Positions 3,187 through 62,356 of a DNA stretch of 64,000 bases are shown here, one piece after another (the first letter of the stretch is position 1; the number at the start of each line of letters is the position of its first letter). The position numbers and the translations under genes are program-made. A model generated the notes under the pieces. It was not told where the DNA came from. It searched no databases and was given only the letters and a program-made list of their open reading frames with translations. This stretch comes from Minisyncoccota bacterium (lineage in GTDB: Bacteria; Patescibacteriota; Minisyncoccia; Phycocordibacterales; UBA918): NCBI GenBank assembly GCA_021734905.1, contig JAIPIB010000001.1, positions 71,476-135,475 on the forward strand. The letters run 5' to 3'.

Positions 3187-3597
3187 TCACTGAGTCCTAA
3201 ACTGACTTGGAAGCGTGTACCCAGCATCATTATCAGCGGGGTAGGTATTTTTTTGTTTCATGTAGTCTGGTGTAATTGCTTCATTGCCAAACCCGAGCCC
3301 ACTGACGAGTAGGTTAACAATACCCCAAAGACTTATAATGATAACGAAAGCCGAAATGCTCCATATGGTCATTGAACGCGCTTTTTCATGACCTTCTTCA
3401 CTACCACCTGCAAAGATAAAGAAACGTGCTGCATTCCAAACAAATATCAGAAATGCTATCGAGAGCAAGAAGGGTATGAGTGCGCCATCAAGGAATTTAA
3501 GTATATTTGCAAGGAAAGTTTGAATATTCATTACAGTAATCATACCGCAAAAGTACCCAAAATAAGCCGAATTTGCACATATTGACAATAATTTCAT
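3187..3597 (-). CDS. Small integral membrane protein (about 136 aa from the Met at 3597). It loosely resembles VirB2/TrbC-like pilins and similar small proteins common in CPR genomes.
   Basis: Two to three predicted TM helices (LIPFLLSIAFLIFVWNAARFFIF, IWSISAFVIIISLWGIVNLLVSGLGFG). On the minus strand a tattat -10 lies about 7 nt before this ATG, which suggests a leaderless start. The ORF-track start at 3651 would overlap the divergent gene. Confidence 0.45.
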   Translation of the reverse strand: MKLLSICANSAYFGYFCGMITVMNIQTFLANILKFLDGALIPFLLSIAFLIFVWNAARFFIFAGGSEEGHEKARSMTIWSISAFVIIISLWGIVNLLVSGLGFGNEAITPDYMKQKNTYPADNDAGYTLPSQFRTQ

Positions 3598-3650
3598 ATG
3601 TGCTATAATATATATAGAAGGTGGGTCATCGCTCACTAGAGGAGAATACA

Positions 3651-3830
3651 ATGCACGTTGTGAAAAAAGAAAGTAAGGCCGAAATACTCATGGGCTCCAT
3701 TTCTTTTGTTCTTTTCCTTTACCTCTTGATTGGGACGCCAGTATGGATGTCCCTCGCAGAAGGAAAGCCAATCTTCCCCGGTCTGCTCTATGAGCCAGCG
3801 GTGAGATTGATTCAAGCGGTTCTCGGGTAA
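3651..3830 (+). CDS. Small membrane protein (59 aa)
   Basis: gctataat -10 at 3603-3608 and GAGGAGA 7 nt upstream of ATG 3651. One TM helix (ILMGSISFVLFLYLLIGTPVWM). Followed by a hairpin plus T-run at 3854-3885. Confidence 0.35.
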   Translation: MHVVKKESKAEILMGSISFVLFLYLLIGTPVWMSLAEGKPIFPGLLYEPAVRLIQAVLG

Positions 3831-3936: not shown

Positions 3937-3962
3937 TAATTTTGGATATTTTACGTACTTTG

Positions 3963-4036
3963 TCCGCGCTCTAGGATTCGAACCTAGGACCCTCCGAGTA
4001 TCAGTCGAATGCTCTAGCCAACTGAGCTAAGCGCGG
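3963..4036 (-). tRNA. tRNA-Ile (anticodon GAU)
   Basis: The reverse complement folds as a cloverleaf: acceptor CCGCGCT/AGCGCGG, D-stem GCTC/GAGC, anticodon stem TTCGA/TCGGA with loop CTGATAC (anticodon GAT), T-arm CTAGG-TTCGAAT-CCTAG, discriminator A. No encoded CCA. Confidence 0.85.
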
Positions 4037-8942: not shown

Positions 8943-9206
8943 ATGTCGAAAGAATCATTTGTTTTTGTCCTTGGTGGAATTGTTTTTGTGACGCCGTTTT
9001 TGGGTGTTCCGAGTGATTACAAGGAGTGGATATTCATTGTAAGTGGAGTCCTCCTGATGATTGCCGGATATCGGTTGAGGAGAATGGCGTTTTTAAAATC
9101 TCTCGAGCATGAGAGCGGTGAACGTCGTGGAGAGGTCTTTGTCGAAAATAATCATTTTGAATTAGAAAAGAAAGAAGTTGTCCAACACGAGGAAATACAT
9201 GTATGA
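8943..9206 (+). CDS. Small membrane protein (87 aa)
   Basis: Two TM helices followed by an acidic tail. The ATGA stop/start overlap with the next gene suggests co-translation. Confidence 0.45.
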   Translation: MSKESFVFVLGGIVFVTPFLGVPSDYKEWIFIVSGVLLMIAGYRLRRMAFLKSLEHESGERRGEVFVENNHFELEKKEVVQHEEIHV

Positions 9207-10777: not shown

Positions 10778-10881
10778 TGTTTGTCTGACCCAACGCTAAT
10801 TATACTGTGGTTAGTAGACATCCCATTCTCGTTTTCGAGTTAATTTCAAAGCCTCGTAACTACGGTTACGAGGCTTTCGTC

Positions 10882-10928: not shown

Positions 10929-12938
10929 TTGGTCCACTTCTGTTATACTTTTCGTATGTCATTTGATCCAAACAGAATTAACTTTTTTGCACAAACTGAT
11001 GCCCGTGGCAAAAATGTCCAGTTTGGTATTAAGGCAAAGGATCGGCAACGTCACGTTTATGTGATCGGGAAAACCGGAATGGGTAAGTCAACGCTTCTCG
11101 AAAATATGGCCGTGCAAGATATCCAGAATGGGGAAGGGATTGCCTTTATTGACCCACACGGCTCTGCAGTTGAAAACCTCCTCAATTATATTCCCGAACA
11201 CCGTGTGAAGGACGTTCTCTATTTTTCACCATCTGATACTGAGTGTCCAGTTTCTTTTAATATTATGGAGGATGTTGGCCCAGACAAGAGACATCTCGTA
11301 GTCTCAGGACTCATGTCTGTATTCAAGAAGATATTTGTTGATCAGTGGTCAGCACGTATGGAATATATTCTTTCAAACACACTTCTCGCACTTCTTGAAT
11401 ATCCGGACTCGACGCTTCTTGGTGTAAATAGAATGCTCTCTGATAAAGATTACCGAAAGCTTGTTGTTGATAATGTGAGAGACCCTGGTGTAAAAGCCTT
11501 TTGGGTAGATGAGTTTGCGAAATATAATGAGCGTTACATGCAGGAGGCGGGGGATGCTATTAAAAATAAAATCGGACAGTTTACTGCGAATCCTATCATT
11601 CGGAATATCATTGGCCAGCCAAGGTCGAGTTTTGACCTTCGAATGATTATGGATGAGAAGAAGATCCTTATTATGAACCTTTCAAAAGGACTCATTGGGG
11701 AAACAAATGCAACACTTTTAGGCTCCATGCTCACAACGCGCATCTATCTTGCTGCCATGAGTCGTGCTGATCTTCCTCCTGAAAAAATGCGTGACATGCC
11801 AAACTTCTACTTTTTTGTGGATGAGTTTCAATCCTTTGCTAATGCTTCCTTTGCAAATATTCTCTCTGAGGCACGTAAATATCACCTCAATCTTACGATT
11901 GCTAACCAATATATTGATCAAATGGAAGAAGAGATTCGAAATGCAGTGTTTGGAAACGTTGGGACGACCATTACATTTCGCGTAGGACCATTTGATGCTG
12001 AAGTACTTGAGACAGTATTTACACCACAATTTTTAGCTCCTGATATTATCAACCTGAGTTTTGCACAAATTTATCTCACGCTCATGATTGATGGTATTGG
12101 ATCACAACCATTCTCTGCGACCACTCTTCCACCAATTGCTCCGCCTCAAACCTCTTGCAAAAATATGGCTCTTGCATCAAGTAGGGCGCAGTTTACGAAG
12201 CCACGTGCTGAAGTTGAGGAATTAATTCATAAATTCCACGAGCCTATTGTCAAGCCAAAAAAAGTTGAGAGAGTAGAGACGATTATTCCACGAGCAGTCT
12301 ATTCATCAGAAAAAAAGAAAGATGTGCCAAGGGAAGCGGTATCAATTCAAAAACCAATAATTCAAACAACTCCTGCAGCACTTACAGAGCAAGGAGCACG
12401 ATCAGTCCCTGAAAAAGCACAAGGTTTTCGAACGGAACAACGGCGAACACAGACTGACAGTGGAGCGCCCGCACGAAGAGAGATGAGCGCTCGGCCAAGG
12501 CAGCAGGTTCAAACATCTGTGCCGAGCAGGGGTCCAGAAAAGCCCAAGTCTCCAATAAAGGCTGATGTTCAGTCTGAGGATCTTAGGACTGTCCTCAAGC
12601 GACTTGCAGCGACTGAGAAGTCAAATAATCCTGGGGATTATAATCACGAAAAAGGTTTTGGGAAAGAGAAGCGAGATCAGCCAGAAAAACCAGAACTTAA
12701 GCGTGCACTGGAGTCACTTGTAAAAAAAGAAGATGGTACAGTACAGAACAATTCTAAGTCAGAAACAGGAAATGAGACTCAGACAAATCAAGAAACAGAG
12801 GCGTTTGTGAACAGAAATACAAATGAGTTAGCAAAAAGTAATTCTACACCTGAGGAGGGTGTTGAGAAAAAACACATTACACCGAAAGAGCTTGAACGAA
12901 TGATGCGTATCACCACAAGTGATAAACCTCCGATATAG
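10929..12938 (+). CDS. P-loop ATPase of the TraD/TraG/VirD4 (type IV coupling protein)-like / DUF87 family with a roughly 300-aa low-complexity C-terminal tail
   Basis: Walker A GKTGMGKST and FIDPHG. TraG-D_C-like block FYFFVDEFQSFANASFANILSEARKYHLNLTIANQYIDQ...FGNVGTTITFRVGPFDAEVLE. Residues about 370-669 are Pro/Ser/Glu/Lys/Gln-rich with no predicted fold. The true start may be the Met at about 10956. Confidence 0.6.
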   Translation: MVHFCYTFRMSFDPNRINFFAQTDARGKNVQFGIKAKDRQRHVYVIGKTGMGKSTLLENMAVQDIQNGEGIAFIDPHGSAVENLLNYIPEHRVKDVLYFSPSDTECPVSFNIMEDVGPDKRHLVVSGLMSVFKKIFVDQWSARMEYILSNTLLALLEYPDSTLLGVNRMLSDKDYRKLVVDNVRDPGVKAFWVDEFAKYNERYMQEAGDAIKNKIGQFTANPIIRNIIGQPRSSFDLRMIMDEKKILIMNLSKGLIGETNATLLGSMLTTRIYLAAMSRADLPPEKMRDMPNFYFFVDEFQSFANASFANILSEARKYHLNLTIANQYIDQMEEEIRNAVFGNVGTTITFRVGPFDAEVLETVFTPQFLAPDIINLSFAQIYLTLMIDGIGSQPFSATTLPPIAPPQTSCKNMALASSRAQFTKPRAEVEELIHKFHEPIVKPKKVERVETIIPRAVYSSEKKKDVPREAVSIQKPIIQTTPAALTEQGARSVPEKAQGFRTEQRRTQTDSGAPARREMSARPRQQVQTSVPSRGPEKPKSPIKADVQSEDLRTVLKRLAATEKSNNPGDYNHEKGFGKEKRDQPEKPELKRALESLVKKEDGTVQNNSKSETGNETQTNQETEAFVNRNTNELAKSNSTPEEGVEKKHITPKELERMMRITTSDKPPI

Positions 12939-14358
12939 GATATGTCCAGATCGTTCTATCTTGTTCTTGTTGTACTCTTTTGGATACCATGGACATCTCA
13001 TGCAGCTGATCGTGATCAATGAGGTGGCATGGATGGGAACTGGTGCGAGTGCGAATGATGAATGGATTGAATTATATAATAGCGGATCTTCAGCCATTGA
13101 TCTCGAAGGATGGGTGCTAACCGACAATGTATCACTAAATATTGCGCTTACCGGTATCCTTAGTACTGACGAATATGCAGTTCTCGAACGAACTGATGAT
13201 ACAACTGTTGAAGGTGTTGCATTCTTAATCTATTCAGGAGCGCTTTCAAATGATGGGAGAACACTGACTTTGCAGCGTTCAGATAATTCTATTGAGGACC
13301 AAGTCGCTGGAGGAGAAAATTGGGAAAACATCGGTGGCAATAATGAGACGAAAGAAACACCCCAAAGAACATCGTCTGGCTGGATAACAGGAGCTCCAAC
13401 CCCAGGAAAGAGTAATATTTTTGGAACAACTGAAAGTGAAGATATGTCGGAGAATTTTTTGTCGTCTGGATCAAATACGAGTGGGGGAGGTTCGTCTTCA
13501 AAAAATGCAGCAGTATCGAGTGTTCAAAAAGTTAAAGCACTAACCCCTGAACCCTTTCTTGTTCTAAAAATTAAAGGACCAAGTCTTGCATATGTTAATC
13601 AAGAAATTTCACTGGAGGCGATACCAAGCGGTATAGGAAAGACACTCATGAATTCACTTGTTTATATATGGAATTTTGGAGATACCTATACAGCGTCATC
13701 AAAGAAAATTTCGCATATTTTTGAATACCCAGGAGAGTATATTGTTGTTACAGAGGCAGTGTATGCAAAGCAGAAGGCTTTAGTGCGACACGAAATTACG
13801 GTACTTCCTGTTTCATTTTCGCTCTTAAAATCAGAGGCTGGTGATGTACTTTTACATAACAATTCAAAATATGAAGTTAATATCAGTGGCTTCATATTAA
13901 AGAGCGATTCTCAGCTTACACTTCCAATGCATACAGTACTGAAGGCGAACGGGACACTTACTATTTCATCGAAACGGTTGCAGTTGCGACCAGGTGGAAT
14001 AATATCTCTCTATGATGCAACAGGGACATTCGTCACATCAAATACAATAAAAGAGCAAAATGGACCTACGACAGAAAAGTCTTTTTCAAATCCTTCACCA
14101 CAAAACGTGCTATATGACACTGAAGAAGTTGTCACTGAACCAGCTTCTGCTAAAAATAGTTCAATTGAAGATCAAGGTGTGGCTATTGAAAAGGATGTTC
14201 TTTTGGAGACAATGATCCCTATTGGGGCAAGAACAGTTGATGGAGTAGAAAATGAAACTGGATTTTTAGGAAACAAAAATATGTTTTATTGGATAGTGTC
14301 AGGGATTATAATTTTGGGTATTTTCAGTCTTTATACGTGGCGGTCGATAAAGGTATAG
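12919..14358 (+). CDS. Lamin-tail-domain (LTD) plus PKD-domain surface protein with a C-terminal TM anchor
   Basis: LTD signature INEVAWMGTGASANDEWIELYNSGSSAIDLEGWVLTD. PKD-like IWNFGDTYTASSKKISHIFEYPGEYIVVTEAVYA. C-terminal hydrophobic helix WIVSGIIILGIFSLYTW. Confidence 0.7.
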   Translation: MINLRYRICPDRSILFLLYSFGYHGHLMQLIVINEVAWMGTGASANDEWIELYNSGSSAIDLEGWVLTDNVSLNIALTGILSTDEYAVLERTDDTTVEGVAFLIYSGALSNDGRTLTLQRSDNSIEDQVAGGENWENIGGNNETKETPQRTSSGWITGAPTPGKSNIFGTTESEDMSENFLSSGSNTSGGGSSSKNAAVSSVQKVKALTPEPFLVLKIKGPSLAYVNQEISLEAIPSGIGKTLMNSLVYIWNFGDTYTASSKKISHIFEYPGEYIVVTEAVYAKQKALVRHEITVLPVSFSLLKSEAGDVLLHNNSKYEVNISGFILKSDSQLTLPMHTVLKANGTLTISSKRLQLRPGGIISLYDATGTFVTSNTIKEQNGPTTEKSFSNPSPQNVLYDTEEVVTEPASAKNSSIEDQGVAIEKDVLLETMIPIGARTVDGVENETGFLGNKNMFYWIVSGIIILGIFSLYTWRSIKV

Positions 14359-21239: not shown

Positions 21240-21812
21240 ATGAAACCGTTTGATGAGCAAAAATTTCATACAAAGAGTCGAGTAAATATAGAAGGAGTAA
21301 TACTGAAGTCACTTGCGCTTGCAGGGCTAGTAACAATTGCTGTTATTGCACCAAATGCACTCCAGCTCCTCAAGTATCTCGACAAGGATAGGCGACGTAA
21401 AAAGAATCCAAAACATCTTATCGACGAAGCACTCGCAAGACTTGTCACAAAGAAATTTATTAGTATTTCAAAAAATGGTCAGTTATTCCTGACGAAGGAA
21501 GGGGAGAGAAAACTGCACATGATTGAACATGGTGTCTACCCACTCCCAAAGATAAAATGGGATAAGAAATGGAGGATCGTATCATTTGATGTGAGTGAAA
21601 AGAGGAGAAAAAGTCGAGATAAGCTCAGATTACTTCTTCGACAGGTCGGATTTGTTCGATTACAAGATAGCGTGTGGGTGTACCCATATGATGTTGAAGA
21701 TGTGGTTAATCTTATCAAAACAGGAAGTTTTCTTGGAAAGGAGATACTCTACATGACAGTACATACCACAGGTAAAGATGTTGAATTAAAATCACACTTC
21801 AAACTTTCTTGA
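21240..21812 (+). CDS. Hypothetical protein with an N-terminal TM helix and a possible winged-helix segment
   Basis: ORF flanked by a roughly 40-nt repeated element on both sides. No family recognised. Confidence 0.5.
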   Translation: MKPFDEQKFHTKSRVNIEGVILKSLALAGLVTIAVIAPNALQLLKYLDKDRRRKKNPKHLIDEALARLVTKKFISISKNGQLFLTKEGERKLHMIEHGVYPLPKIKWDKKWRIVSFDVSEKRRKSRDKLRLLLRQVGFVRLQDSVWVYPYDVEDVVNLIKTGSFLGKEILYMTVHTTGKDVELKSHFKLS

Positions 21813-21858: not shown

Positions 21859-22716
21859 TTGTTTGGTAGGTGGGCAGGTTGTAGGTATTTGTGTATACTT
21901 TTTGGTATGGAAATGAAAGAATATAAAGGAATATTGCATTGTCATTCAACCTATTCGTATGATGCAAAGCTCTCACTCCTTGAGCTTAAGAAGTTATTTC
22001 AGGAGAAAGGTTTGAGTTTTGTGTGCATGACCGAACATGTAGATGAACTGACACCAGAGCGATCCGAAGAATTCGTCCGTGAGTGTGAAGTACTCTCGGA
22101 TGACTCATTCCGATTCATCCCAGGCTTTGAAGTGCCTTATAAGCACGCGCATATTCTTATGATAGGTATGCGCGAATTCTTAGGGAAGTACGCGTCGACT
22201 CTTGAGGTTTTAAAAACATGGACAAGCAAGGCAGAGTTTGTTGTTCTTGCACACCCTGTCCGAAATCACTTCGAAGTTGAGGATGGACTCCTAGAACAAA
22301 TTGATGCCCTTGAAGTATGGAACCAGCAATATGAGGGAAAGCGTGTGCCACGAACTCGCTCCGTCACACTTCTTGATGGGTTGCGAAAACAAAAACCATT
22401 GCTTCTTGCAGTAGGTGGTGTTGATTTTCATCGAACAGAACATTTTGGATCACCAGTAACAACTCTCAGTGTTGAGAAACTTACAGAGGCGACAATATTA
22501 GAAAAATTGCAGACAGGAGCGTACAGTGTTTCTTCAGATAAAGCATTTTTCTACGGAACGTTACCAAATAGTGTTGGGCTACTTAGAGCTCACAGACTTG
22601 AAAGTTTAGTATCAGTCACCGTAATCGTAATGGGGAAGTTTGTTAATAAAATACTTGCGTCGCTCGGGCTCTCTCTTCCAAAATCCTTCAGAAACATCAT
22701 CCGAAAGCGACTTTGA
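21859..22716 (+). CDS. PHP-domain metal-dependent phosphoesterase (CpsB/YwqE-like fold)
   Basis: ILHCHSTYSYDAKLSLLELKKLFQEKGLSFVCMTEHVD matches the PHP HxH...D...TEH pattern. The likely start is the Met at about 21904. Confidence 0.65.
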   Translation: MFGRWAGCRYLCILFGMEMKEYKGILHCHSTYSYDAKLSLLELKKLFQEKGLSFVCMTEHVDELTPERSEEFVRECEVLSDDSFRFIPGFEVPYKHAHILMIGMREFLGKYASTLEVLKTWTSKAEFVVLAHPVRNHFEVEDGLLEQIDALEVWNQQYEGKRVPRTRSVTLLDGLRKQKPLLLAVGGVDFHRTEHFGSPVTTLSVEKLTEATILEKLQTGAYSVSSDKAFFYGTLPNSVGLLRAHRLESLVSVTVIVMGKFVNKILASLGLSLPKSFRNIIRKRL

Positions 22717-28833: not shown

Positions 28834-29682
28834 ATGGTCAATTTTATAGGTATTGGAGCGCAACGAACGGGGACGTCGTGGGTATATGCATGTCTTTATG
28901 AACACCCAGATATTTGTATCCCTGTTAAAGAAATTCACTTTTTTAGTCGACCACGGTATGAAAATGGAAAAGAATGGTATGAAGACCATTTTAGGAAGTG
29001 TAAAAAAGAAAGTAGGTGCGGAGAATTTTCAACTTCGTATTTGTACTCAGATGTTGCTGCTGAGCGTATTTCTAAAGATTACCCAGAAGCAAGAATAATT
29101 GTCATTGTACGAAATCCTATTACGCGTGCGCTTTCACAGTATGGAAATGCAATAAAGGGAGGCGAGATACCCGAGACTATGTCTTTTGAGGAATATTACA
29201 AATCAGAGGCAAGTGTTCTTGAACAAGGACGTTATGTAGAACAACTTGAACGGTACCTTGAGAGATTTGACCGTTCACAAATACTTGTCCTCGTGTATGA
29301 AGATAATAAGAAAGATCCACGTGCATTTATTCACAGTATATATGAATTTCTTGGTGTGCGTTCTGACTTCGTGCCAAGTATGCTTCATGACACAATCAAT
29401 GCTACTCGTATACCAAAAAATGTTGTAATAGAAAAAATGATGCATCGTTTTTCAGAATATCTGAGACGGTACGGATTTGATCGACTCGTGCATCGTATTC
29501 GGCAATTAGGAATTCCTGAATTAATACGAGCCATGAATACAAAACCAAAAAAAGATGAGAGGCCAGTATTTAATCAAGAGTATCTCATGAATTATTTTAA
29601 GAACGACGTAACAAAACTCTCTTCGTTACTTGGGCGTGACCTTAATTCTGAGTGGGGAATAAGTGACACACATACACAATAA
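28834..29682 (+). CDS. Sulfotransferase (PAPS-dependent, Sulfotransfer_1/3-like)
   Basis: 5'-PSB loop IGAQRTGTSW and 3'-PB motif IVIVRNPITRALSQY. Confidence 0.75.
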   Translation: MVNFIGIGAQRTGTSWVYACLYEHPDICIPVKEIHFFSRPRYENGKEWYEDHFRKCKKESRCGEFSTSYLYSDVAAERISKDYPEARIIVIVRNPITRALSQYGNAIKGGEIPETMSFEEYYKSEASVLEQGRYVEQLERYLERFDRSQILVLVYEDNKKDPRAFIHSIYEFLGVRSDFVPSMLHDTINATRIPKNVVIEKMMHRFSEYLRRYGFDRLVHRIRQLGIPELIRAMNTKPKKDERPVFNQEYLMNYFKNDVTKLSSLLGRDLNSEWGISDTHTQ

Positions 29683-45512: not shown

Positions 45513-46793
45513 TTATTTAGAATTATCTTTTTCTGATCTTGAAAAGAGAATCATTTGTAGAATTATAGTCGCTCCTTTTGAAAGTAAAATAGATAGAATG
45601 GCGCCGAGAACTCCATAGTGGGGAATAAGTATGACAAAGAAAAAGATTTTTAACCCAGAGTCAAATATTCTGATTGAATAAAGAGATTTTATTTTTTTTT
45701 GGATTTGAAGAGCGTTACCGTGAAGGATTCCAGCAGCAATAATGGGAAGAATGAGTATGTAGATTGATGCATACCATGAAGCCTCAACATATTGAGGAAA
45801 CAGCAATGAATAGAGTGGTTTCGCTATTATCCAGAAAAGTATAGTGATAACGAGCGTGACGATGACGTATGTTCGTGTGTGAGTTTTGATACTATGAGCA
45901 AGTTGCGCGTCATTTTTTGTACTAAGTCTTGGTATAACCATCGAATTAATTAATTTGTTGATACTTCGAATTTGATCAGGAATTCCAACTGAAAACGCAT
46001 AAATAGCTAGTTGGTATGGTCCAAGGAATTGGAAAATAAGGATTTTGTCGATATATTCAGCTATAACACTAATGATGTTTCCAACACTGAGGTGCCTACT
46101 GAGTGCCTGCTCAGAGACGTCGACACTATTTTTGTCAGGGTTATAAAATCGGAGAGTTCTTTTTTGAGCAAGATATTGATAAAGCGTCATCGAGCCATTG
46201 TAGGCAAGGAGTATCCAAAACACACTTGTGGCATCAAAAAATATAATACATGCTATGGAAGACACTACGGTAATTGAACTGAGTACTTGATTTTTTGCGA
46301 GATTCTTAAAATCTTTTTTTCCGTTTAGAAACGAAGTGTGCAGTATGAAAATATTTTGCAGATATACAAAAGTGCTCATGAGTATGACTCCAAGTCCAAG
46401 AACATAATTATCGTTATAGATGTAGTATCCGCCAAAGAAAAGCGAGATTATTATTGCGGGAGTACCCCATAGAGCAGAGAGTTTTTTTTCGTATTCAAGC
46501 GACCCATCAAATCCCTTTGAAACTGATTGCAGCACTGCGCTGGCAGCACCAGTAAGCGAAAAAGCACTTATTATTCCAGCAACAGCAAGGATGTATTTAT
46601 ATTGTCCATAGGTAGTTGAATCAATATAGTTCGCGAGAAGTACCGAAACAAGAAATCCACAAAGTGTACCAAAGGCATGACTACTACTAATTATAGTACC
46701 GTTTTTAAGTAAATAATGAATATCAATATGAAATTTTTTTTGTATGATGTTGAGAAAAGATTCTAATTTCATGGTGTGTGTTGATTTTACCAC
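45513..46793 (-). CDS. Wzx-type oligosaccharide flippase (polysaccharide biosynthesis protein / MOP superfamily)
   Basis: 426 aa with about 12 predicted TM helices and a typical Wzx hydrophobicity profile. Confidence 0.7.
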   Translation of the reverse strand: MVKSTHTMKLESFLNIIQKKFHIDIHYLLKNGTIISSSHAFGTLCGFLVSVLLANYIDSTTYGQYKYILAVAGIISAFSLTGAASAVLQSVSKGFDGSLEYEKKLSALWGTPAIIISLFFGGYYIYNDNYVLGLGVILMSTFVYLQNIFILHTSFLNGKKDFKNLAKNQVLSSITVVSSIACIIFFDATSVFWILLAYNGSMTLYQYLAQKRTLRFYNPDKNSVDVSEQALSRHLSVGNIISVIAEYIDKILIFQFLGPYQLAIYAFSVGIPDQIRSINKLINSMVIPRLSTKNDAQLAHSIKTHTRTYVIVTLVITILFWIIAKPLYSLLFPQYVEASWYASIYILILPIIAAGILHGNALQIQKKIKSLYSIRIFDSGLKIFFFVILIPHYGVLGAILSILLSKGATIILQMILFSRSEKDNSK

Positions 46794-53008: not shown

Positions 53009-54685
53009 TTGTCACTTAGAATAAATAAATTATATATGAATACAGAGCATGCTGATATCCTACATCTTCCGCGACTTAATCTGCGTGGAAGGCAACTCCA
53101 CGATCTTGAGGTGATGCTCGTGGGTGGATTTCTTCCTGTAACGGGATTTATGGATGAGGAGGATTATACTTCTGTAGTAGAGACAATGCGACTCAAAAAC
53201 GGTTCACTTTTTCCTATTCCGATTGTGCTCGATATTCCTGCAAAGAGTCCGTATGTCGTTGGCGACAAAATTTTGCTCTGTGATTCTTTTGGTAACCCCC
53301 TCTCAGTTATGGATGTCACCTCACGGTTTACACCAGATAAAAAAAGGGAAGCGCAGGCTGTGTATGGAACTGAAGATACTATGCATCCAGGGGTACAGTA
53401 TCTTTTCAGTGAAATGCATGACACCTACATTGGAGGAACACTATCGAAGCTTGCGCTTCCAATTCGAAACGACTTCAAACAATTTAGAAAAACACCGGAA
53501 GAACTTAAGGTTATATTTAAGGAGAAAGGATGGGACAGGGTTGTTGGTTTCCAGACGCGCAACCCAATGCATCGTGCACATTTTGAGCTTGTTAAACGCG
53601 CATATGAAAAAGTCGGTGCCCCCGTGCTCGTACACCCTGTTGTTGGGATGACAAAGCCTGGCGATATTGATTACGTGACGAGAGTTCGTACGTATAACAT
53701 TGTCTGTAATAGTTATGGAAAGGATTTTACGTATCTTTCCCTCTTGCCACTTGCTATGCGTATGGCAGGCCCACGAGAGGCCGTATGGCATGCGATTATT
53801 CGAAAGAATTACGGGTGTACGCATTTTATCTCTGGGCGCGATCATGCAGGTCCTGGCAAAGGGAGTGATGGAAAAGATTTTTATGGACCATATGACGCGC
53901 GCGATCTTGCACTTAAATATGCTGATGAGATAGGCATTACTATCATTGCATCTGATGAGCTTGCATATTCTAAGACGCGACAATCGTATGTCGCCGCTGA
54001 CGAAGTGACTCATGAAGATGAAATTGAGAATATTTCAGGTACTGAATTTAGAAGGAAGCTGCGTGAAGGTGAAGATATTCCCGAATGGTTTTCGTTTAAG
54101 GAAAGCATTGATATATTGCGTGAAAGTGTCCGAAAGGATATTCGACCCGGTGTCACTTTCTTTTTTACAGGACTCTCATGTTCTGGTAAGTCGACACTCG
54201 CCCAACTACTTCTTGCTCGTCTTCAAGAAATTCAAGATCGTGAAGTGACATTCCTTGACGGTGACGTCATTCGTGAAAATCTTTCAAAAGGCCTCGGTTT
54301 CTCAAAGGAGGATCGGGATGAAAATGTAAAGAGAGTTGGGTTTGTTGCTAGTGAAGTGGTGAAGCACGGAGGAATAGCCATTTGTTCACTTATTGCACCA
54401 TACCGTGATACGCGTCGATATGTGCGAAATATGATAGAGCACCATGGTGAGTTTATTGAAATATTCGTGAATGCGTCTGTTGATGAGTGTGCGAGGCGCG
54501 ATACAAAGGGTCTCTATGAAAAGGCCCGCAAGGGACTCATTAAGGGATTTACTGGTGTTGATGACCCATATGAAGAGCCTGAAAATCCAGAGCTCATTGC
54601 CTTGACTGAAGAAAATTCTCCGGAAGTAATTGTCGAAGAAATACTGAAATATCTACATGAACGTGAGATATTCAAGCGGAAGTAG
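53009..54685 (+). CDS. Bifunctional sulfate adenylyltransferase (ATP sulfurylase) / adenylylsulfate kinase (PAPS synthase)
   Basis: N-terminal GFQTRNPMHRAHFEL (QTRN/HRAH ATP-sulfurylase motifs). C-terminal VTFFFTGLSCSGKSTLA P-loop and APS-kinase fold. Confidence 0.85.
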   Translation: MSLRINKLYMNTEHADILHLPRLNLRGRQLHDLEVMLVGGFLPVTGFMDEEDYTSVVETMRLKNGSLFPIPIVLDIPAKSPYVVGDKILLCDSFGNPLSVMDVTSRFTPDKKREAQAVYGTEDTMHPGVQYLFSEMHDTYIGGTLSKLALPIRNDFKQFRKTPEELKVIFKEKGWDRVVGFQTRNPMHRAHFELVKRAYEKVGAPVLVHPVVGMTKPGDIDYVTRVRTYNIVCNSYGKDFTYLSLLPLAMRMAGPREAVWHAIIRKNYGCTHFISGRDHAGPGKGSDGKDFYGPYDARDLALKYADEIGITIIASDELAYSKTRQSYVAADEVTHEDEIENISGTEFRRKLREGEDIPEWFSFKESIDILRESVRKDIRPGVTFFFTGLSCSGKSTLAQLLLARLQEIQDREVTFLDGDVIRENLSKGLGFSKEDRDENVKRVGFVASEVVKHGGIAICSLIAPYRDTRRYVRNMIEHHGEFIEIFVNASVDECARRDTKGLYEKARKGLIKGFTGVDDPYEEPENPELIALTEENSPEVIVEEILKYLHEREIFKRK

Positions 54686-54892: not shown

Positions 54893-57112
54893 ATGAAAGA
54901 TATTGCAAAAGGATTAGTGTACATGGGGATTTTTGCCATCCCTTTCATTCCGCTTATCATCTCTAATTCAATGTTCTTCCCATTTATTACTGGAAAGAAC
55001 TTCACATTCCGTATCCTTGTCGAAATCGTTTTTATTGCATGGATAATTCTCGCTGCGTATGAGCCAGCGTATCGACCGAAACGTTCGGCGATAGCGTTGA
55101 GTTTCCTTTTGTTTCTTGTTGTTATGTTTGTCGCTAATATTAATGGGCAATATCCATTAAAAAGTTTTTGGAGTAACTTTGAACGAATGGAAGGATACGT
55201 AACACTCGTACATACTTTCGCCTATATGCTTGTTCTCGGAAGTGTGTTTACGACCCAAAAAATTTGGGATAGGTATTTTATGACCATCATTGGTTCAGCA
55301 ATGATTCTTTCTCTGTACGCATTTGCACAGCTTTCTGGAAATATTGTCATCAATCAAGGTGGGGGACGACTTGATGGAACACTTGGGAATTCTGCCTATA
55401 TGGCAATCTACACGCTCTTCCTTATTTTTATAACATTTTTTATGCTGCTCCGAACTCAGAGCAAAGGCATGCGATATGGGTATAGTGCACTCATACTTCT
55501 CTTCATGTATTTATTACTGCAGACTGCCACTCGAGGAACAGTACTAGGTCTCGTAGGAGGTATGTTTATTGCTGTCTCTTATATCGCATTATTAATAAAA
55601 AGTCATCCACATGTACGTAAGTACGCAGTTGGTGGATTGGTGGCAATAGTAGCGAGTGTGACACTTTTCATTACATTTAAGGAATCTTCTTTCATTCAAG
55701 GAAATCCCTATCTCGCACGTATTGCAACTATTTCTTTAAAAGAAGGATCAAACCGTTTTGAAATTTGGAGCATGGCATTTGAGGGGGTAAAAGAACGTCC
55801 ACTTCTTGGATGGGGGCAAGGAAACTACAATTATGTCTTTAACAAGTACTATGAGCCTGAACTTCATGGGGGAGAAGCATGGTTCGACCGTGTTCATAAT
55901 ATTGTTATGGATTGGTTGATTGCTGGTGGATTCATTGGTGCCGTTGCCTATTTCTCAATTCTTGGTTCTGCAGTGTACTATCTTTTCTTCCGCCCACTCT
56001 TCAAGAAGGATGATGAAGCGTTTACTGTCGTGGAACGTGGAGTTCTCTTGGGAATTCTTGCAGGGTACACAGTACACAATCTCTTTGTGTTCGATAATAT
56101 TGTGAGTTATGTGTTTTATGGAACGATACTCGCATATATTCATTCACGGACAAGTACTGGTATTCCTGCACTTGAGCGGTGGAAGATCGATGTTCGTGTT
56201 GTTGAACAGGTAGTAGTTCCTGTTATGACAATCCTCCTTGTCATAACAGTCTACTTTGTAAATGTTCCAGCTATACAGGCATCGAAAGATATTATTAACG
56301 CATTCCGAGCAAAAGATCCGAATGAGATGCTTAAAAATTTTGATATTGCTCTTGCACGAAATTCGTTTGGAAATCAAGAGATACGCGAACAACTTACTCA
56401 ACGTGCGCAATCAGTCTTTCAAGATCCGAACGCACCAGAAGCATTAAAACAGAAGACGTTTAAACGTGTTGAAGAGGAGTTGCAAAAGCAGATAGAAGAG
56501 AAGCCCAATGATGCAAGAGTCGAGGTGTTTATCAGCTCATTCTATCGAATGACTAATAATCTTGATCAGGCGGTTACTCACCTTGAGAAAGCTCGATCAC
56601 TTTCCCCACGAAAGCAGCTCATTATCTTTGAGCAAGGTACGGTAGCATTGCAGAAACAGGAATTCGAGAAAGCTACAGAATTCTTTAAGGAGGCTTACGA
56701 ACTTGGACCACAGTTTATAGAGTCGCGTGTGTATTACGCAACCGCATTGGTTTATGGTGGGCAACTTGGGCTTGTTGGCGACCTTATCCAAACAGAAGAA
56801 CAGAAGAATGCCTTTGCAGTAAATGAAAATGCAGTTAGAGCAGTTTACCAGGCAAAAATGTATCCAATGCTTAAAGATATGTTTGCGCGACAAATTGTGC
56901 TAAATCCAAACAATGGACAAGTAAGAACGAATCTTGCGTATGTATTGAGCGAGACGGGAGATACTGCAGGAGCAATCGACGTCCTTACAAAGGCAGGAGA
57001 GGATATTCCAAGTTTCAAGGAACAGGCGGATCAATTTATAGCAACCATTAAAAATGAAGATCCTGCAACACCGACTGTAGAAATTAATGGGCAGAAAGTT
57101 CAGACTGAATAA
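54893..57112 (+). CDS. O-antigen ligase/polymerase-like (Wzy_C) membrane domain fused to C-terminal TPR repeats
   Basis: About 12 TM helices with a periplasmic loop TRGTVLGLVGG...LLGWGQGNY. C-terminal roughly 250 aa show TPR-like repeats. Confidence 0.7.
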   Translation: MKDIAKGLVYMGIFAIPFIPLIISNSMFFPFITGKNFTFRILVEIVFIAWIILAAYEPAYRPKRSAIALSFLLFLVVMFVANINGQYPLKSFWSNFERMEGYVTLVHTFAYMLVLGSVFTTQKIWDRYFMTIIGSAMILSLYAFAQLSGNIVINQGGGRLDGTLGNSAYMAIYTLFLIFITFFMLLRTQSKGMRYGYSALILLFMYLLLQTATRGTVLGLVGGMFIAVSYIALLIKSHPHVRKYAVGGLVAIVASVTLFITFKESSFIQGNPYLARIATISLKEGSNRFEIWSMAFEGVKERPLLGWGQGNYNYVFNKYYEPELHGGEAWFDRVHNIVMDWLIAGGFIGAVAYFSILGSAVYYLFFRPLFKKDDEAFTVVERGVLLGILAGYTVHNLFVFDNIVSYVFYGTILAYIHSRTSTGIPALERWKIDVRVVEQVVVPVMTILLVITVYFVNVPAIQASKDIINAFRAKDPNEMLKNFDIALARNSFGNQEIREQLTQRAQSVFQDPNAPEALKQKTFKRVEEELQKQIEEKPNDARVEVFISSFYRMTNNLDQAVTHLEKARSLSPRKQLIIFEQGTVALQKQEFEKATEFFKEAYELGPQFIESRVYYATALVYGGQLGLVGDLIQTEEQKNAFAVNENAVRAVYQAKMYPMLKDMFARQIVLNPNNGQVRTNLAYVLSETGDTAGAIDVLTKAGEDIPSFKEQADQFIATIKNEDPATPTVEINGQKVQTE

Positions 57113-61551: not shown

Positions 61552-61956
61552 ATGACTTTTTGTTCATTACATGTGCCACAGTTTGACCACGTCGAGACGT
61601 TACGATTAAGGCTGCTTGCGCAAAGGCGTTTGAACGGGTGGAGAGGAAAAGCTTCATCACTTGTAAGTCAGGCAGTTCTCGCTGTCATGCGGGGAGTACT
61701 CGATCGTAAGGGGGTTACTCCAAGTGAGGGAGCTATTACCATAAAAGAAAGGAGAGGAAAAATACGACCTGAATTTATGGCCACGTATTTCTCGGGTGGG
61801 GCAACCGTGACGTTTCTCGTTATTCCTGACACTGAGCGTGCTTGTGCAAGTGTTCAGGTTCATTCATACGAGACACACGTTCTTGCCTTTTGGCTCGCAC
61901 TTGAGGTTGGTCAGGGGTGGACTGTAGAAAACCTCTACCATAGCTCAAATGAATAA
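61552..61956 (+). CDS. Hypothetical protein (134 aa)
   Basis: GAGGAGG SD 6 nt before ATG 61552. Canonical terminator acccgtcggaa-ttt-ttccgacgggt plus T7 at 61957-61990. Confidence 0.45.
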   Translation: MTFCSLHVPQFDHVETLRLRLLAQRRLNGWRGKASSLVSQAVLAVMRGVLDRKGVTPSEGAITIKERRGKIRPEFMATYFSGGATVTFLVIPDTERACASVQVHSYETHVLAFWLALEVGQGWTVENLYHSSNE

Positions 61957-61990
61957 ACCCGTCGGAATTTTTCCGACGGGTGTTTTTTAT
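61957..61990 (+). terminator. Rho-independent terminator
   Basis: 11-bp GC-rich stem with a T-run. Confidence 0.8.
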
Positions 61991-62023
61991 GGAAAACAAA
62001 CAGAAAAAGTATATACTAATAAT

Positions 62024-62356
62024 ATGAATTTCTTCGCAAGACTTATTATAAGTGCAGCAACACTTATGCTGGTGACCTACATTGTCCCAGGGATCACGGT
62101 AGATAGCTTCTATACAGCGCTTGTTGCAGCTTTAGCCCTCGGGCTTTTGAATGCTGTAGTTCGCCCCGTGCTCGTTATCTTAACGCTACCAATTACTATT
62201 CTCACACTCGGTATTTTCATTTTTATTATTAATGCGAGTTTGTTTCTCTTTGTTGCATCATTCGTTGACGGGTTTGAAGTCTCCGGTCTTGTGAGTGCAC
62301 TCATTGGTTCAATACTTGTAAGTATCATCAGTGGTATCGCAAACAAGCTTTCGTAA
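62024..62356 (+). CDS. DUF360 / phage-holin-family-4-like small membrane protein
   Basis: LLNAVVRPVLVILTLPITILTLGIFIFIINASLF...GFEVSG pattern with 4 TM helices. Start taken at the internal Met to avoid the terminator. Confidence 0.5.
   Translation: MNFFARLIISAATLMLVTYIVPGITVDSFYTALVAALALGLLNAVVRPVLVILTLPITILTLGIFIFIINASLFLFVASFVDGFEVSGLVSALIGSILVSIISGIANKLS

Follow-up and report, generated by a model that had tools for sequence, protein, structure and literature searches.

Bacteria of the Candidate Phyla Radiation (CPR), or Patescibacteria, have no means of making nucleotides, and scavenged DNA is believed to sustain them. We describe two adjacent genes from a member of this group, a Minisyncoccota bacterium, within a 64,000-nt stretch of contig JAIPIB010000001.1 (hereafter, the window): the first encodes an ATPase that resembles type IV coupling proteins (T4CPs), and the second a surface protein with a lamin-tail domain (LTD). 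Orphan T4CP homologues of Patescibacteria were reported in 2025 by Quiñonero-Coronel et al. (PMC12102498), who counted 5,713 VirD4-type homologues in 2,918 of 3,035 genomes and VirB4 in 2,417, with only 148 of the T4CP homologues near virB4. In Southlakia, the t4cp homologue was non-essential and the T4SS (type IV secretion system) essential, and those authors keep exaptation possible. The Southlakia T4SS cluster had earlier been described as having no recognisable coupling or relaxase protein, and the com genes of this organism as non-essential but mediating transformation (Wang et al. 2023). ComEA was annotated in only 31% of CPR genomes by Méheust et al. (2019; PMC6744442), and an alternative DNA-binding mechanism was proposed. 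Most CPR bacteria thus have no recognisable ComEA, and their near-universal T4SS comes with neither a relaxase nor an assigned coupling protein.

The ATPase gene of the window is almost certainly among the 5,713 already counted, and NCBI carries annotations for the proteins. The following are new and not part of that study: the division of the family into anchorless and membrane-anchored forms, a tail that ends in a family-specific motif, the extreme conservation of the gene, and its operon with a surface protein that carries either an LTD or a helix-hairpin-helix (HhH) domain; a frameshift of the surface-protein gene in the window genome is likewise reported for the first time.

The open reading frame (ORF) list gave two ORFs on the same strand, at 10929–12938 and 12919–14358. 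We place the start of the ATPase at ATG 10956, not at TTG 10929; homologues begin MSFDPN, as does the public protein P0001, a Candidatus Pacebacteria 'type IV secretion system DNA-binding domain-containing protein' to which the ATPase is identical. The protein passes the Pfam gathering cutoffs of TrwB_AAD_bind (PF10412; 32.2 bits versus 20.5, aligned over aa 27–343), of DUF87, the HerA central domain (26.1 versus 23.2), and of TraG-D_C (PF12696; 22.9 versus 22). A preliminary description of this DNA had read a Walker A motif and a TraG-D_C-like block from the letters alone; both are present, the latter containing Walker B (Table 1). Scores against full-length NCBIfam models were far lower than required (SXT_TraD, 48 versus a cutoff of 366; conju_CD1115, 34 versus 250).

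An AlphaFold2 (AF2) model built on 72 homologues had a mean predicted local distance difference test score (pLDDT) of 63.7, with confident regions at aa 50–310 and 390–430 and low scores at aa 317–385 and throughout the tail. When this model was compared with the PDB using Foldseek, DotL (6sz9, E 4e-7), TrwB (1e9s, E 8e-7) and Cagβ (8dol) came first, the T4CP matches spanning E 4e-7 to 1e-5 and TrwB having a TM-score on target of 0.47; HerA (4d2i) was the next fold. Identity in the structural alignments with T4CPs was about 14–15%, and PDB sequence searches with the protein or with a 72-sequence profile matched TrwB around the P-loop only (E ~1e-3). The ATPase thus shares with TrwB of R388, VirD4, Cagβ and DotL, its best structural matches, a RecA-like P-loop domain and a predicted inserted all-alpha domain. 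It differs from them in having no N-terminal transmembrane (TM) domain: a hydropathy search found no membrane helix in the protein (maximum 19-aa Kyte-Doolittle mean of 1.4, inside the core domain), in which just 37 residues precede Walker A. We conclude that the ATPase is a distant, anchorless member of the VirD4/TrwB/DotL coupling-protein superfamily, whose membrane domain was lost or never acquired.

Two other assignments were considered and rejected. HerA and FtsK belong to the same ASCE P-loop superfamily, and the DUF87 match passes its cutoff, but both differ from the ATPase in lacking the all-alpha insertion typical of T4CPs. The short N-terminus leaves no room for the HAS barrel of HerA, no NurA was matched among the window ORFs by Pfam, and TrwB_AAD_bind outscores DUF87 while T4CPs rank above HerA in the fold search, so that the VirD4/TraD-like assignment of the preliminary description holds against a plain HerA/DUF87 helicase. 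For FtsK/SpoIIIE, PF01580 scored 12.1 bits versus a cutoff of 24 (E 0.13), and the protein has neither a gamma domain nor a TM segment.

The conserved ATPase module is followed by a low-complexity tail of about 205 aa, shorter than the roughly 300 aa of disorder first proposed, and then by a conserved 20-aa peptide. Hydrophobic residues make up 17% of the tail versus 37% of the ATPase domain. Across 117 aligned homologues, most 20-residue blocks within residues 1–430 show 73–98% identity to the window protein and residues ~440–640 are poorly conserved and gap-rich, while the C-terminal 20 residues are again ~78% identical, with the consensus [ST]PKELERMMR[VI]TT[SN]DKPP. This terminal peptide is amphipathic and nearly invariant, and two conserved helices within the tail look like it (Table 1). 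More distant anchorless relatives have C-termini of a related type (EVPEDVLKxIL) or of a second type (LKPGExIxF), so that a short motif at the end of a floppy tail characterises the family. FtsZ- and FtsK-type tethers are built as a long disordered linker capped by a terminal peptide, and the C-terminal tails of known T4CPs such as DotL and F TraD dock adaptors or relaxosome proteins; those T4CPs do not share the family-specific end peptide found here.

The family is large. At E ≤1e-3, a search with the ATPase domain returned 21,534 representatives of 50%-identity clusters, of which 5,828 reached E ≤1e-30, and more than 8000 proteins are close homologues. A second form, about 50% identical over the ATPase domain, is extended at its N-terminus by 300–450 aa, made up of one or two TM helices followed by a DUF8128 domain (PF26449) of about 350 aa; the start of the window ATPase coincides exactly with the end of DUF8128 in this form. 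The TM–DUF8128 proteins, presumed paralogues, also have disordered tails, which do not carry the PKELERMMR end peptide. A rough neighbour-joining tree, built from 100 cluster representatives, intermixed the anchorless form with the TM–DUF8128 form, some of the short forms being possibly truncated gene calls. Examples of the TM–DUF8128 form occur in two Saccharimonadia-like contigs, L164 (10001–12636) and L165 (10001–12770), in both of which it was called as two ORFs (DUF8128 plus DUF87, then TraG-D_C). There it follows DprA–TopA–sigma factor and stands back-to-back with MurG–FtsW–MraY–FtsI–RsmH–MraZ.

Conservation of the anchorless gene was measured in a scan of species-representative genomes, in which 488 species had a relative and 80 loci were analysed. 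The order MurD–MurC–RsmI–small ORF–DUF4015–ATPase recurs widely across these loci. Compared with their counterparts in the window, the proteins had median identities of 78% (ATPase domain), 65% (DUF4015), 64% (RsmI), 57% (MurC), 55% (MurD) and 41% (LTD protein). Conservation in the neighbourhood is highest for the ATPase domain, which surpassed MurC in identity in 42 of 42 loci. The gene accordingly belongs to the chromosomal core of Paceibacteria-type CPR bacteria and experiences very strong purifying selection, in contrast to the genes for TrwB, VirD4, Cagβ and DotL, and it belongs to a family that occurs in ~96% of Patescibacteria genomes and is conserved beyond the Mur ligases.

Conservation of this degree could befit a housekeeping motor acting on DNA or nucleoprotein in cell division, chromosome segregation or envelope growth, tethered through its tail to the divisome or elongasome. 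The neighbours would suit such a role (MurD/MurC, CofD/YvcK, glycosyltransferases and, in related genomes, a YkuD–S11 peptidase), as would the position of the TM-anchored paralogue back-to-back with the MurG–MraZ group and, by analogy, the resemblance of linker and end peptide to FtsZ- and FtsK-type tethers. We nevertheless consider this role improbable: the FtsK_SpoIIIE match is insignificant and the gamma domain absent, the Southlakia homologue is non-essential (PMC12102498), and envelope genes form so large a share of small genomes that proximity to them is weak evidence. The niche of FtsK is also probably filled, since ftsK is annotated in CPR bacterium TM7x.

The gene for the surface protein comes next after that for the ATPase in 33 of the 64 loci with enough downstream DNA, and in 26 of 31 HMM-positive cases it begins 2–7 nt past the ATPase stop. 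The pair is retained at three loci where both flanks are unrelated to those of the window (L058, L067 and L072), and independent gene calls on two further long contigs again put the ATPase directly upstream of an LTD gene. We also searched in the reverse direction, scanning metagenomes with an alignment of 10 closer LTD sequences and keeping those homologues that had the complete LTD–PKD–LTD architecture and sufficient DNA upstream. An ATPase lay directly upstream of 27 of these ~39 homologues, including every one at ≥37% identity; the 12 without it are more distant. Several distant LTD–PKD–LTD–TM homologues are instead found between RuvB and YebC in the order PilB(T2SSE)–RuvB–LTD protein–YebC–RuvC (for example L119, 2878–8456; also L114, L117, L121, L123, L130 and L141).

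Among 32 downstream proteins scanned, PKD was found in all 32, LTD in 31 and a ComEA-type HHH_3 domain in six. In these six (L012, L017, L020, L027, L030 and L066), HHH_3 (36–75 bits, E down to 3.5e-21) takes the place of the first LTD (LTD1) directly after the signal peptide, and the PKD, the second LTD-like module and the TM anchor are kept. They share with ComEA both this domain and an extracytoplasmic, membrane-anchored arrangement. The surface protein of the window has no Pfam match to HHH_3 (PF12836) and differs from ComEA in having an acidic LTD in place of HhH, a C-terminal rather than an N-terminal anchor helix, and additional PKD and LTD-like modules.

These observations give moderate support to a functional pairing of the two genes. 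It is also possible, though somewhat unlikely, that they are functionally unrelated and that the LTD–PKD protein, a rapidly changing surface protein for adhesion or host contact, happens to share a promoter with the ATPase, a question that concerns the pair and offers no alternative role for the motor. The low identity of the LTD protein (41% versus 78% for the ATPase), its acidity, its fold matches to generic Ig/PKD adhesion modules, the absence of the gene in about half of relatives together with its frameshift in the window, and the twelve distant homologues without an upstream ATPase all fit such independence. The tight spacing, the retention of the pair when both flanks change, the presence of an upstream ATPase for every closer homologue, and the exchange of the head domain for a DNA-binding HhH speak against it. 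The absence of the LTD gene in about half of relatives and its frameshift here indicate that the ATPase can do without it.

The surface-protein family has the architecture signal peptide–LTD–PKD–LTD-like–C-terminal TM anchor and, judged by its sequence, is an exported surface protein. In the window, the second ORF matches LTD (PF00932) in two stretches with 62.4 bits (cutoff 34.3) and PKD_4 with 28.0 (cutoff 27), which bears out the earlier statement that an LTD–PKD protein adjoins the ATPase. Of 120 homologues, 104 carry a leader of 15–45 aa, and the signal peptide runs straight into the LTD motif (…AxA-[IV]xINE[VI]AWMG); at the C-terminus, a TM helix precedes a few basic residues. Homology places the start of the window gene at ATG 12942, 3 nt past the ATPase stop and in a frame that differs from that of the LTD body. 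The 20-nt overlap of the two genes noted previously is accordingly an artefact, because the longest-ORF rule took the wrong start. The two frames are separated by a single extra G, which lies outside any homopolymer and is also present in an independent Logan assembly (two assemblies in all); deleting it restores ...SHAA-IVINEVAWMG, as in homologues. In public annotation the gene is started at ATG 13000, which yields a 452-aa product without a signal peptide. In the window genome the gene has either been recently inactivated or gives a product that is not exported.

An AF2 model of the 452-aa product had a mean pLDDT of 79.5. It comprised LTD1 at aa 1–140 (pLDDT ~85–95), a disordered Ser/Gly linker, the PKD and the second LTD-like sandwich as a rigid part (aa 185–350, pLDDT >94), another linker and a TM helix at aa 428–450. 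A PDB fold search with the LTD–PKD model returned generic PKD/Ig matches only and no clue to a ligand. LTDs are documented in extracellular nucleases and archaeal ComA-like proteins, with membrane association as the proposed role; the link of LTD to ComEC in CPR that the preliminary description had drawn was not found in the literature searched.

Table 1. Features of the ATPase and surface-protein genes and their surroundings (window positions)
Feature	Position	Strand	Residues	Basis or remark
VirB2-like T4SS pilin gene	3187–3651	-		PF18895, 29 bits; sole T4SS-type gene in the 64 kb
Terminator-like hairpin	10848–10877	+		13-bp stem, then T-rich run; between DUF4015 and ATPase genes
Anchorless T4CP-like ATPase gene (stop included)	10956–12938	+	660 aa	Pfam, homologue starts
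Conserved ATPase module (RecA-like nucleotide-binding domain plus all-alpha insertion)	10956–12260	+	1–435
Walker A, GKTGMGKST	11067–11093	+	38–46	Invariant in 72-homologue alignment
All-alpha insertion in nucleotide-binding domain, eight helices	11280–11654	+	~109–233	AF2 prediction, pLDDT 80–95
Walker B, YFFVDE	11808–11825	+	285–290	Within TraG-D_C match (aa 284–350); invariant in 72 homologues
Variable low-complexity tail, E/K/R/T/S/P/Q-rich	12261–12875	+	436–640	~205 aa, predicted disordered
Conserved tail helix, EDLRTVLKRL	12573–12602	+	540–549	Alignment, AF2 model
Conserved tail helix, PELKRALESL	12690–12719	+	579–588	Alignment, AF2 model
Conserved C-terminal peptide, ITPKELERMMRITTSDKPPI	12876–12935	+	641–660	Presumed docking motif
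Signal-peptide segment of surface-protein gene, MSRSFYLVLVVLFWIPWTSHAA	12942–13007	+		Out of frame with rest of gene
Extra G, frameshift between signal peptide and LTD body	13008	+		Not in homopolymer
Surface-protein gene body	13009–14358	+		Pfam, AF2 model
LTD1 of surface protein	13009–13305	+		Disordered Ser/Gly linker follows
PKD plus second LTD-like sandwich	~13552–14049	+		Second linker follows
C-terminal TM helix of surface protein	~14281–14349	+		Short basic tail after

Our preferred reading, which we hold tentatively, is that the ATPase and the surface protein serve the acquisition or handling of DNA and not plasmid conjugation. The ATPase would form a hexameric ring motor, as TrwB does, and its tail peptide would tether it to a membrane partner that is present in all of these genomes and is distinct from the LTD protein, candidates being the TM-anchored DUF8128 paralogue, ComEC/ComF or the inner-membrane platform of the T4SS. 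At the cytoplasmic face of the membrane it would pump a polymer, most likely DNA. The surface protein would act outside the cell in the same pathway as a dispensable accessory, capturing extracellular DNA or else a cell or material that supplies it. DNA is the likeliest substrate for three reasons: what members of the family usually do, the exchange of LTD1 for HhH, and the recombination and competence genes that lie beside related genes. It would also be consistent with Southlakia, in which neither the com genes nor the t4cp homologue is essential. The link to DNA thus draws on the HHH_3 exchange, the PilB–RuvB–LTD protein–YebC–RuvC context, the paralogue beside DprA–TopA and the scarcity of ComEA. 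The first part of the earlier proposal, that this is not classical conjugation, is upheld by the conserved chromosomal core, the lack of VirB4 and relaxase genes in the 64 kb, and the conservation of the ATPase beyond MurC at every locus compared. The second part, a DNA-uptake module, fares less evenly: the HHH_3 swap in six orthologues and the pairing at 33 of 64 loci speak for it, and the acidic LTD and the half of relatives that have no LTD gene against it.

Several points weigh against a role in DNA acquisition. DNA is a presumed substrate of the ATPase, and T4CPs also move proteins, as DotL and Cagβ do. LTD1 is strongly acidic (median net charge of -13 per 125 aa, pI 4.1), which argues against direct DNA binding; the HhH variants are likewise mildly acidic, and the literature on LTD yielded no demonstration of DNA binding by a bacterial LTD. 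With a cytoplasmic tail of 4–10 variable residues, the surface protein is not expected to contact the ATPase directly, and the tail peptide of the ATPase, being conserved with or without a downstream LTD gene, does not appear to contact the LTD protein either. That gene is missing from about half of relatives and frameshifted in the window. The neighbourhood consists of envelope genes whose synteny changes slowly, so that adjacency alone is weak evidence, and RuvB/RuvC and DprA–TopA are housekeeping genes in compact genomes. Lastly, conservation this extreme is unusual for competence proteins and points to a more central role.

Gene content was judged by Pfam scans of the 63 ORFs in the window. 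The gene order is MurD–MurC–RsmI–DUF4015–ATPase–LTD–CofD/YvcK followed by an epimerase, and the region as a whole is chromosomal and envelope-centred, with many glycosyltransferases, sulfation genes, an O-antigen-ligase-like protein, MurB and SecA. None of these ORFs matched VirB4, VirB6, VirB8, a relaxase or ComEC, so that the reported lack of a nearby relaxase or VirB4 extends to the full 64 kb, although a VirB2-like pilin gene is present. It lies ~7 kb upstream of the ATPase, alone between rRNA/tRNA genes and MurD, and has syntenic copies upstream of MurD at three related loci (L012, L027 and L041).

The pilin bears on another possible, though rather unlikely, role: that the ATPase is the coupling ATPase of a chromosomal Patescibacteria-type T4SS (VirB4, VirB6 and VirB2-like pilins) encoded elsewhere, near dnaA, to which it would be recruited by its tail to hand over protein effectors or DNA, the LTD gene being a mere neighbour within an island of envelope genes. 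Its fold and Pfam matches are to T4CPs, Paceibacteria possess virB4 clusters, Patescibacteria T4SS clusters have no recognisable coupling protein (Wang et al. 2023) and T4CP homologues are encoded elsewhere, and the pilin is syntenically conserved; by analogy with DotL and F TraD, the tail could dock an adaptor or relaxosome protein. Such coupling is harder to reconcile with the missing membrane domain, the absence of VirB4 and VirB6 from the 64 kb, NCBIfam TraD and VirD4 equivalog scores far below their cutoffs, and a conservation of the ATPase domain far beyond that expected of a secretion accessory. Moreover, T4CP homologues occur in 2,918 genomes versus 2,417 for VirB4, and the Southlakia T4SS is essential whereas the t4cp homologue is not (PMC12102498).

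DNA acquisition, our preferred reading, has a more specific version that we regard as a long shot. The T4CP-derived anchorless motor and the surface LTD/HhH protein would be the two ends of a Paceibacteria-type DNA-uptake route, in which the surface protein replaces ComEA and the ATPase, tethered by its tail to ComEC or to a relaxase-less T4SS importer, pulls DNA in. If so, a conjugation coupling protein would be running in the uptake direction. The missing anchor, the putative tethering peptide and the repeated surface-protein partner turn an orphan T4CP homologue into testable hypotheses of DNA uptake versus secretion, and the 20-aa peptide, LTD1 and the HhH variants are defined reagents for pull-downs and binding assays.

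The 458 nt directly upstream of the ATPase gene are non-coding. The strong terminator-like hairpin just 5' of the gene suggests that the ATPase begins a new transcription unit, and the same scan found no terminator-like site between the ATPase and LTD genes. A promoter scan returned 10 sites versus 13.2 expected by chance, showing no excess; the sequence TTGCAT-N18-TACAAT, spotted by eye upstream of the ATPase, falls below the criteria of that scan and is not claimed as a promoter. In ~20 related genomes, a YkuD (L,D-transpeptidase)–Peptidase_S11 fusion of ~500 aa stands between DUF4015 and the ATPase (for example L163, 6337–7818; L015, L018, L019, L022, L024, L028 and others), and no remnant of it was found in the 458-nt gap of the window. 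The small ORF between RsmI and DUF4015 (8943–9206, +) encodes 87 aa with one or two hydrophobic helices and no Pfam match, and is kept in 55 of 80 related loci.

Elsewhere in the window, a complete 16S rRNA gene (597–2057, +; Rfam, 1368 bits) has no 23S rRNA gene beside it, which makes this an unlinked rRNA operon; ~1.9 kb away, the other strand carries tRNA-Ile(GAT) (3962–4036, -). A very large glycan-synthesis island (~16,900–57,100) includes at least 10 glycosyltransferases (GT4, GT2 and GT9), four enzymes of the GDP-mannose-dehydratase type, several methyltransferases, a sulfotransferase (28834–29682), an ATP-sulfurylase/APS-kinase (53009–54685), a flippase (45513–46793) and a Wzy_C–TPR protein (54893–57112), a gene set that suggests a sulfated surface polysaccharide. 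Within the same interval, a protein with a PaaX_M/Cas2-like domain (21240–21812, +) adjoins a PHP-domain protein (21859–22716, +), a pair that is kept downstream in several related loci (L003, L007). A Phage_holin_4_2 membrane protein (61949–62356, +; 113 bits) lies in a housekeeping context, adjacent to SecA and a VTT/DedA-type protein.

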